A stretch of 64,000 bases of DNA from Escherichia coli (GTDB lineage: Bacteria; Pseudomonadota; Gammaproteobacteria; Enterobacterales; Enterobacteriaceae): the NCBI RefSeq assembly GCF_003334255.1, contig NZ_QOWU01000020.1; one strand, given 5' to 3'. The notes under the pieces are model-generated. The model had not been told where the DNA came from, searched no databases, and saw nothing but the letters and a program-made list of their open reading frames with translations. Below, one piece after another: positions 12,572-15,199 of the stretch (the stretch's first letter is position 1; every line of letters starts with the position of its first letter). Position numbers and translations under genes: made by a program.

Positions 12572-15199
12572 TTATTCTTCTTCTGGCTCGTCGTCAACGT
12601 CCACTTCCGGAGCGATTTCATCGTCCCCTTCCGCGGCACTGCCGTCGATGGTATCCAGATCTTCCTCGTCAACCGGTTCAGCAACACGTTGCAGACCCAC
12701 TACGTTTTCATCTTCCGCAGTACGGATGAGGATCACGCCCTGGGTGTTACGGCCCACGATGCTGATTTCCGAAACGCGAGTACGTACCAGCGTACCGGCA
12801 TCGGTGATCATCATGATCTGGTCGCAGTCATCTACCTGTACCGCGCCAACAACTAAACCGTTACGTTCGGTAACCTTGATGGAGATAACCCCTTTCGTCG
12901 CACGCGACTTGGTTGGGTATTCCGCCACTGCGGTACGTTTACCGTAACCGTTTTGCGTTGCGGTGAGGATTGCGCCATCGCCACGAGGCACGATCAGAGA
13001 GACGACTTTATCGCCTTCACCTAAGCGAATACCGCGAACACCGGTGGTGTTGCAGCCCATCGCACGGACAGAAGACTCTTTAAAGCGCACCACTTTACCT
13101 TCAGCGGAGAACAGCATTACTTCGTCTTCGCCGCTGGTCAGGTCAACGCCGATCAGCTCATCGCCGTCAACCAGTTTGATCGCCACTTTACCGGCGGTAC
13201 GCAGACGGTTGAACTCGGTGAGGACAGTTTTCTTCACGGTACCGTTAGCGGTCGCCATGAAGACTTTCACGCCTTCTTCAAACTCGGTCACTGGCAGGAT
13301 CGCAGTGATACGTTCGTCCTGCTCCAGCGGCAGCAGGTTGACGATCGGACGACCGCGCGCGCCACGAGTGGCTTCCGGCAACTGATAAACTTTCATCGAA
13401 TAGACGCGACCACGGCTGGAGAAGCACAGAATATGGTCGTGAGTGTTCGCCACCAGCAGTCGGTCGATAAAGTCTTCTTCTTTAATACGTGCGGCAGATT
13501 TACCTTTCCCGCCACGACGCTGCGCTTCGTATTCAGAAAGCGGCTGATACTTAACGTAGCCCTGGTGAGAGAGCGTCACGACCACATCTTCCTGGGTGAT
13601 CAGATCTTCCAGGTTGATGTCTGCGCTGTTGGCGGTGATTTCAGTACGACGTTTGTCACCGAACTGTTCACGAACCAGCTCCAGCTCTTCACGGATCACT
13701 TCCATCAGACGATCGGCGCTACCAAGAATACGCAACAGTTCCGCGATCTGATCCAGCAGCTCTTTGTATTCGTCGAGCAGTTTTTCGTGCTCAAGACCGG
13801 TCAGTTTCTGCAAACGCAGATCCAGAATCGCCTGAGCTTGCTGTTCGGTCAGGTAGTACAGACCATCACGCACGCCGAACTCTGGCTCCAGCCATTCCGG
13901 ACGCGCAGCATCGTCGCCAGCACGTTCGAGCATCGCGGCAACGTTGCCCAGCTGCCACGGATTAGCAACCAGCGCAGTTTTCGCTTCTGCAGGCGTCGGC
14001 GCATGACGGATCAGTTCGATGATCGGGTCGATGTTCGCCAGCGCCACGGCTAATGCTTCAAGGATATGAGCACGATCGCGAGCTTTACGCAGTTCGAAAA
14101 TAGTACGACGGGTCACCACTTCACGGCGGTGACGAACAAACGCCGCGATGATGTCTTTCAGGTTCATGATCTTCGGCTGACCATGGTGCAATGCCACCAT
14201 GTTGATACCGAAAGAAACCTGCAACTGGGTCTGGGAGTAGAGGTTGTTGAGCACAACTTCACCGACCGCATCGCGTTTCACTTCAATCACGATGCGCATA
14301 CCGTCTTTGTCAGACTCGTCACGCAGCGCGCTGATGCCTTCCACGCGTTTTTCTTTTACCAGTTCCGCAATCTTCTCGATCAGGCGCGCTTTGTTTACCT
14401 GATACGGAATTTCGTGGACGATAATGGTTTCACGACCGGTTTTGGCGTCAACTTCCACTTCTGCGCGAGCGCGGATATACACCTTGCCGCGACCGGTACG
14501 GTAAGCTTCTTCAATACCGCGACGACCGTTAATGATTGCCGCCGTCGGGAAGTCCGGCCCCGGGATGTGTTCCATCAGCCCTTCAATGCTGATGTCTTCA
14601 TCATCAATATACGCCAGACAACCGTTGATGACTTCCGTCAGGTTGTGCGGCGGGATGTTGGTTGCCATACCTACGGCGATACCGGAAGAACCGTTCACCA
14701 GCAGGTTAGGAATTTTGGTTGGCATGACGTCCGGAATTTTTTCCGTGCCGTCATAGTTATCAACGAAATCGACCGTCTCTTTTTCGAGATCGGCCATCAG
14801 TTCATGGGCAATTTTCGCCAGACGGATTTCCGTATAACGCATTGCCGCCGCAGAGTCGCCGTCGATAGAACCGAAGTTACCCTGACCGTCTACCAGCATA
14901 TAACGCAGCGAGAATGGCTGCGCCATGCGGACGATCGTGTCATAGACCGCCGAGTCACCATGGGGATGGTATTTACCGATTACGTCACCAACGACACGGG
15001 CAGATTTTTTATAGGCTTTGTTCCAGTCATTGCCTAGTACGTTCATGGCGTAAAGTACGCGACGGTGTACCGGCTTCAGGCCATCTCGGACATCTGGCAG
15101 CGCACGGCCAACAATGACCGACATCGCATAATCCAGATAGGAGCTCTTCAGCTCTTCCTCAATGTTGACCGGTGTAATTTCTCTCGCAAGGTCGCTCAT
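12572..15199 (-). CDS. gyrA: DNA gyrase subunit A
   Basis: 875-aa ORF; unmistakable GyrA N-terminus incl. active-site region and QRDR ([20 protein letters not shown]); acidic C-terminal tail. Confidence 0.97.

Follow-up and report, generated by a model that had tools for sequence, protein, structure and literature searches.

Wild-type quinolone-resistance-determining region in a complete gyrA gene of Escherichia coli

Does the gyrA gene on this stretch of Escherichia coli DNA (64,000 nucleotides, referred to as the window) encode a gyrase that quinolones can act on, and how far does the answer reach for the strain? The original prediction, made from the DNA letters, held that codons 83 and 87 of gyrA are wild type and that the genotype predicts quinolone susceptibility with respect to gyrA; it proposed an alignment with a reference gyrA as a check. 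We are almost certain that the interval is part of the QRDR (quinolone-resistance-determining region) of a complete, intact E. coli gyrA, that it carries the reference allele and that the gyrase is predicted to be drug-sensitive.

Identity and extent of the gyrA gene

Direct reading and a codon-mapping script both place the ATG start codon of gyrA at position 15199 on the minus strand (Table 1). In the proposed alignment, carried out as a match against a genome collection, the gene was identical to gyrA of K-12 MG1655 at 2628 of 2628 nucleotides (100%). The MG1655 copy is annotated in RefSeq as gyrA, with the product WP_001281242.1. C600, J53 and a large number of natural isolates also have this 2628-nt gene at 100% identity, and a gyrA match was present in all complete E. 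coli genomes of the collection (5426/5426). Furthermore, the gene order ubiG-gyrA-yfaA in the window is that of K-12, with ubiG upstream and divergent and yfaA downstream. Nothing therefore distinguishes this gene from gyrA of K-12 MG1655: the nucleotide sequence, the 875-residue protein and the neighbours are alike.

The protein models are in line with this assignment. Both GyrA equivalog models of NCBIfam cover the whole protein with scores above their cutoffs (TIGR01063, 1310 bits, cutoff 877; NF004043, 1258.6 bits, cutoff 902). The N-terminal breakage-reunion domain matches the Pfam model PF00521 over its full length (positions 1-432 of 432, i-Evalue 8.3e-163), and the N-terminal 524 residues are matched by solved structures of E. 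coli GyrA (3nuh, 1ab4, 6rks and others). Six PF03989 blades with i-Evalues from 1.4e-14 to 1.9e-7 make up the C-terminal DNA-wrapping domain. The GyrA box found in the first blade is a gyrase hallmark that is not known from ParC. Tyr122, which we take to be the catalytic tyrosine for DNA breakage and reunion, is present, and a script revealed that the C-terminal acidic tail is complete. Based on the full identity to an annotated gyrA, the equivalog scores, the domains, the GyrA box and Tyr122, we conclude that the window contains a complete and intact gyrA. Given its sequence identity to K-12 GyrA, the product is predicted to carry out negative supercoiling together with GyrB.

Table 1. Features of the gyrA locus and substitutions in the window relative to K-12 MG1655 (positions in the window)
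Feature	Position	Strand	Remarks
gyrA CDS, DNA gyrase subunit A	12572..15199	-	ORF list; 875 codons plus TAA stop
Breakage-reunion domain, N-terminal, PF00521 DNA_topoisoIV	13679..15106	-	residues 32-507
DNA-wrapping domain, C-terminal	12683..13588	-	residues 538-839; six PF03989 blades
GyrA box QRRGGKG	13502..13522	-	residues 560-566, first blade; script search
Tyr122 codon TAT	14834..14836	-	context AAMRYTEIR; Arg121 precedes
QRDR, codons 67-106	14882..15001	-	wild type throughout; translation and codon map
Codon 82, GAC (Asp)	14954..14956	-	wild type; just beyond the interval of the original prediction; codon map
Codon 83, TCG (Ser)	14951..14953	-	wild type; direct reading and script
Codon 87, GAC (Asp)	14939..14941	-	wild type; direct reading and script
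TGtTATAAT, extended -10-like element, candidate gyrA promoter	15244..15252	-	seen in the sequence; 45 nt upstream of ATG
Terminator-like hairpin AAGGGAGCTATCTCCCTT	12535..12552	-	begins 20 nt past the gyrA stop; T-poor tail
Substitutions relative to MG1655	827, 6078, 17063, 17967, 20337, 20895, 21987, 33002, 33146		
Substitutions relative to MG1655, remainder	33725, 33945, 35589, 54577, 59517-8, 61677, 62585		

The extended -10-like element upstream of the start codon may be the gyrA promoter, judging from the visible sequence and from what has been published on the gyrA promoter. A consensus promoter scan of 12400-15400 returned no gyrA promoter call at this element, for want of an adequate -35 hexamer. 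Downstream of the stop codon, the hairpin listed in Table 1 is a weak candidate for a terminator; terminator-like hairpins were not enriched in the scanned region, where 2 were seen and 2.9 were expected from shuffled sequences.

Codons of the QRDR and frequency of the alleles

The QRDR comprises GyrA residues 67-106 (PMC9953508). Within 14880-15260, the minus strand reads CAT CCC CAT GGT GAC TCG GCG GTC TAT GAC ACG ATC, and codons 84, 85 and 86, located between the two main resistance positions, are GCG (Ala), GTC (Val) and TAT (Tyr). The codon map and the nucleotide identity to K-12 bear out that gyrA is wild type at Ser83 (TCG) and Asp87 (GAC). The 18-nt string from Asp82 to Asp87 that had been quoted for 14939-14953 was correct in its codons and wrong in its interval, which is 3 nt short: the reverse complement of these positions is TCGGCGGTCTATGAC, 15 nt and five codons from Ser83 to Asp87, and the full string needs 14939-14956. 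Since the slip amounts to three bases at one end, it leaves the wild-type claim unaffected. A script search located the 18-mer (GAC TCG GCG GTC TAT GAC) only once in the window, on the minus strand. Its chance occurrence is not at issue, because it lies in frame within a gene that is 100% identical to an annotated gyrA.

The resistance-associated positions 51, 67, 81, 82, 84, 106, 119 and 196 were all wild type in the codon map. The extra positions among them (51, 119, 196 and others) are known from resistance catalogues, and their choice is moot because the protein is fully identical to K-12 GyrA. A script that listed the one-step neighbours of the two main codons returned, among others, TTG (Leu), TGG (Trp) and GCG (Ala) for codon 83, and AAC (Asn), GGC (Gly), TAC (Tyr), CAC (His), GCC (Ala) and GTC (Val) for codon 87. 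All commonly reported substitutions at positions 83 and 87 are one nucleotide away from the codons in the window.

As a control, the same read-out was run on eight genomes taken from progressively lower ranks of similarity, and residues 41-128 were compared. It called D87G (GGC) in K-12 J53 (CP070962), S83L (TTG) in strains D5 and DETEC-S589, and the combination S83L+D87N (TTG, AAC) in CREC7837, RS571 and AZ 190. Mutants were thus recovered from six other genomes, and the read-out is able to detect mutant alleles. These resistant alleles (S83L, D87N/G and S83L+D87N) affect the same gene and the same positions, and each substitution in them is a one-nucleotide change from the window sequence, whereas the window carries none of them. 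The O43 strain RM10042 and the O157:H7 strain FRIK804 were called wild type with synonymous changes only. In these strains of other lineages the amino acids over residues 41-128, including Ser83 and Asp87, are those of the window, and the GyrA protein of RM10042 has the same accession as that of K-12. Compared with the window, synonymous differences were found at codons 85, 91, 100 and 111, and in the O157 strain also at codon 84.

Allele counts were obtained from exact 66-nt matches over codons 74-95, using four queries against 5426 complete E. coli genomes. The allele of the window was present in 639/5426 genomes, and a common wild-type background allele was about three times as frequent (2012/5426). 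On this common background, S83L+D87N accounted for 1371/5426 genomes and S83L alone for 412/5426. Hence, at least 2651/5426 genomes (49%) are wild type at codons 74-95 and at least 1783/5426 (33%) are mutant (S83L with or without D87N), these being lower bounds, with 992/5426 genomes falling outside the four alleles (other synonymous backgrounds or substitutions). Complete genomes are biased toward clinical isolates, and the allele shares are not natural frequencies. A wild-type gyrA call is common and unremarkable. In the same collection, one record with a gyrA match bears a plasmid label, and a few genomes have gyrA at two places (5432 places, 5426 records); mislabelling of replicons, duplication or assembly artefacts could account for these cases.

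Surroundings of gyrA and alternative readings of the sequence

Compared with MG1655 (CP032667), positions 1-63925 of the window contain 17 substitutions and no indels. None of the substitutions lies in gyrA; nine change an amino acid and one restores yfaS. Although the 100% identity of gyrA suggested K-12 as the source, this was rejected on account of the 17 substitutions and of the divergence that begins at 63926. The closest genome over 15200-40199 (about 25 kb) was that of strain G1/2, with 3 differences, which originates from the faeces of a healthy person in Germany. Apart from the 17 substitutions, the 64-kb surroundings differ from K-12 MG1655 by an IS1 that interrupts yfbN. The match to K-12 ends inside yfbN at 63926, and the last 74 nt of the window (63927-64000) are an IS1 end that matches IS1-family transposase loci, chromosomal as well as plasmid-borne, with a median of 10 such places in each genome. 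Since the K-12 match stops in yfbN and the final 74 nt are an IS1 end, we conclude that IS1 is inserted in yfbN of the source strain and that the remainder of the element continues past the end of the window.

Two further loci in the surroundings are worth recording. The gene yfaS (alpha-2-macroglobulin family) is an uninterrupted ORF of 1539 amino acids on the minus strand (5577-10196). The MG1655 annotation lists it as a pseudogene interrupted by a stop, TGA at annotation codon 1338, where the window has TGG (Trp; key base 6078 of the window). The arnBCADTEF operon with pmrD (41707-49317), which serves L-Ara4N modification of lipid A and is relevant to polymyxin resistance, is collinear with K-12 and carries no substitutions relative to MG1655.

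Three of the differences from K-12, at 33002, 33725 and 33945, are CCAGG to CCTGG changes, in which A and T are exchanged at the middle position of Dcm-type CCWGG motifs. They cluster within about 1 kb around an ISNCY-family transposase (rpnE/yfaD) and yfaU. A base-calling artefact at methylation motifs was mostly rejected, as the swaps at 33002 and 33725 are common to the assemblies of G1/2 and 210221272. The swap at 33945 (yfaU L227Q), which none of three comparator genomes shares, may be either genuine or an error.

Three alternative readings bear on the gene and on the call itself. If the gene were parC, the topoisomerase IV paralogue, the numbering and the meaning of Ser83 and Asp87 would not apply. 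ParC (topoisomerase IV subunit A) has a paralogous breakage-reunion domain, PF00521 is common to both proteins, and ParC models match the window protein strongly but partially, at 580-694 bits. In ParC, Ser80 and Glu84 form the equivalent pair of a serine and an acidic residue that anchors the water-metal bridge (PMC9917921; PMC11227169). However, the ParC equivalog models all stayed below their curated cutoffs (TIGR01062 parC_Gneg, 580.3 bits, cutoff 628.9; TIGR01061, 694.1 bits, cutoff 813.25), whereas both GyrA equivalogs were well above theirs. Moreover, the window protein, unlike ParC, has a gyrase-type C-terminal domain with its six blades and the GyrA box, and both the nucleotide identity to an annotated gyrA and the K-12 synteny are gyrA-type features. 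ParC identity is therefore rejected outright. Resistance might also arise from another GyrA substitution in spite of wild-type codons 83 and 87, and rarer resistance substitutions are indeed described at other QRDR positions. This reading is excluded as well, because the gene is nucleotide-identical to that of the susceptible K-12 MG1655 reference and, consequently, no GyrA residue differs from it. Finally, the wild-type call could be an artefact of assembly or base calling, or could mask a resistant sub-population. Two substitutions, at 21987 and 33945, occur in the window but in none of the three comparators, and 33945 falls in the middle of a CCWGG motif, so that occasional errors in the source assembly are possible, and a consensus sequence is blind to minority variants. 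On the other hand, the other differences at CCWGG centres are common to independent assemblies and hence real, and an artefact would need to recreate the reference allele exactly over 2628 nt. Codons 80-90 lack CCWGG, their homopolymers do not exceed a length of 2, and their sole GATC spans codons 88-89. Given the lack of CCWGG motifs and long homopolymers at these codons and the exact match to the reference, a sequence error at codon 83 or 87 is very unlikely, and we regard an artefactual or masking call as exceedingly improbable.

Quinolone sensitivity of the gyrase and of the strain

With gyrA thus taken as the reference allele, a mechanism for drug sensitivity can be proposed. GyrA assembles with GyrB into the A2B2 enzyme, which cuts both DNA strands via Tyr122 and reseals them. 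A quinolone wedges into the cut DNA and chelates Mg2+ through its C3/C4 keto-acid, and the water ligands of the metal ion form hydrogen bonds with Ser83 and Asp87. With TCG and GAC both in place, this bridge should be able to form, and the gyrase would be fully drug-sensitive. Published work on E. coli gyrase describes such an arrangement, in which Mg2+ is bound to the quinolone's C3/C4 keto-acid and two of its water ligands are hydrogen-bonded to Ser83 and Asp87 (PMC9917921). Wild-type E. coli gyrase reached maximal cleavage at 10 µM ciprofloxacin, while the S83L and D87N gyrases showed about half of the wild-type cleavage even at 500 µM and the S83L/D87N double mutant was essentially insensitive to the drug (PMC9917921). 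As this biochemistry was obtained with an identical protein, we infer that the present genotype yields a quinolone-sensitive enzyme. The predicted quinolone susceptibility 'with respect to gyrA' is therefore supported, by the K-12-identical GyrA and by the published biochemistry of the E. coli enzyme (PMC9917921).

The susceptibility call is limited to gyrA and does not hold for the organism as a whole, since parC, parE, gyrB, the plasmid qnr-type genes and the efflux regulators are outside the window. Indeed, none of parC, parE, gyrB, qnr, aac(6')-Ib-cr, qepA, oqxAB and the mar/acr/sox regulators lies within the 64 kb, given that between atoA and yfbN the window is collinear with K-12 and shows only substitutions, and no inserted genes, up to 63925. 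The source strain could thus be non-susceptible to quinolones through determinants located elsewhere, so that the wild-type QRDR would mispredict its phenotype. Candidates are plasmid-borne qnr, aac(6')-Ib-cr, qepA and oqxAB, up-regulation of efflux through marR, acrR or soxR, and rare changes in gyrB or parE. In a series of 190 quinolone-resistant E. coli, ten isolates lacked a GyrA substitution at position 83 or 87, nine of them without any chromosomal mutation and one whose sole change was in ParE; the genes qnrS1, qnrB19 and aac(6')-Ib-cr were present in the series (PMC11227169). However, 180 of the 190 carried a GyrA substitution at 83 or 87 (PMC11227169, Table 1), which makes resistance unlikely when gyrA is wild type, and quinolones act in E. 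coli primarily on gyrase (PMC9953508). Furthermore, the nearest relative in the collection is the faecal isolate from a healthy person, and the objection concerns the phenotype of the strain and not the identity of the feature. We consider a non-susceptible source strain improbable, although it is the least remote of the alternatives weighed here. The epidemiological cutoffs (ECOFFs) are 0.06 mg/L for ciprofloxacin and 8 mg/L for nalidixic acid (PMC11227169). With a wild-type gyrA, resistance is unlikely and reduced susceptibility may still occur. If the strain were non-susceptible, the locus would be a false-negative example for prediction from gyrA alone, and such cases are well documented.

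The reading we prefer is that of a complete reference gyrA with a gyrase predicted to be drug-sensitive, and no feature of the sequence speaks against it. This allele is the textbook form of the gene and already known, and the biology of E. coli gains nothing new from it. Its use lies in routine genotyping, for strain characterisation and surveillance, where a wild-type gyrA QRDR excludes the commonest first step to fluoroquinolone resistance in E. coli.
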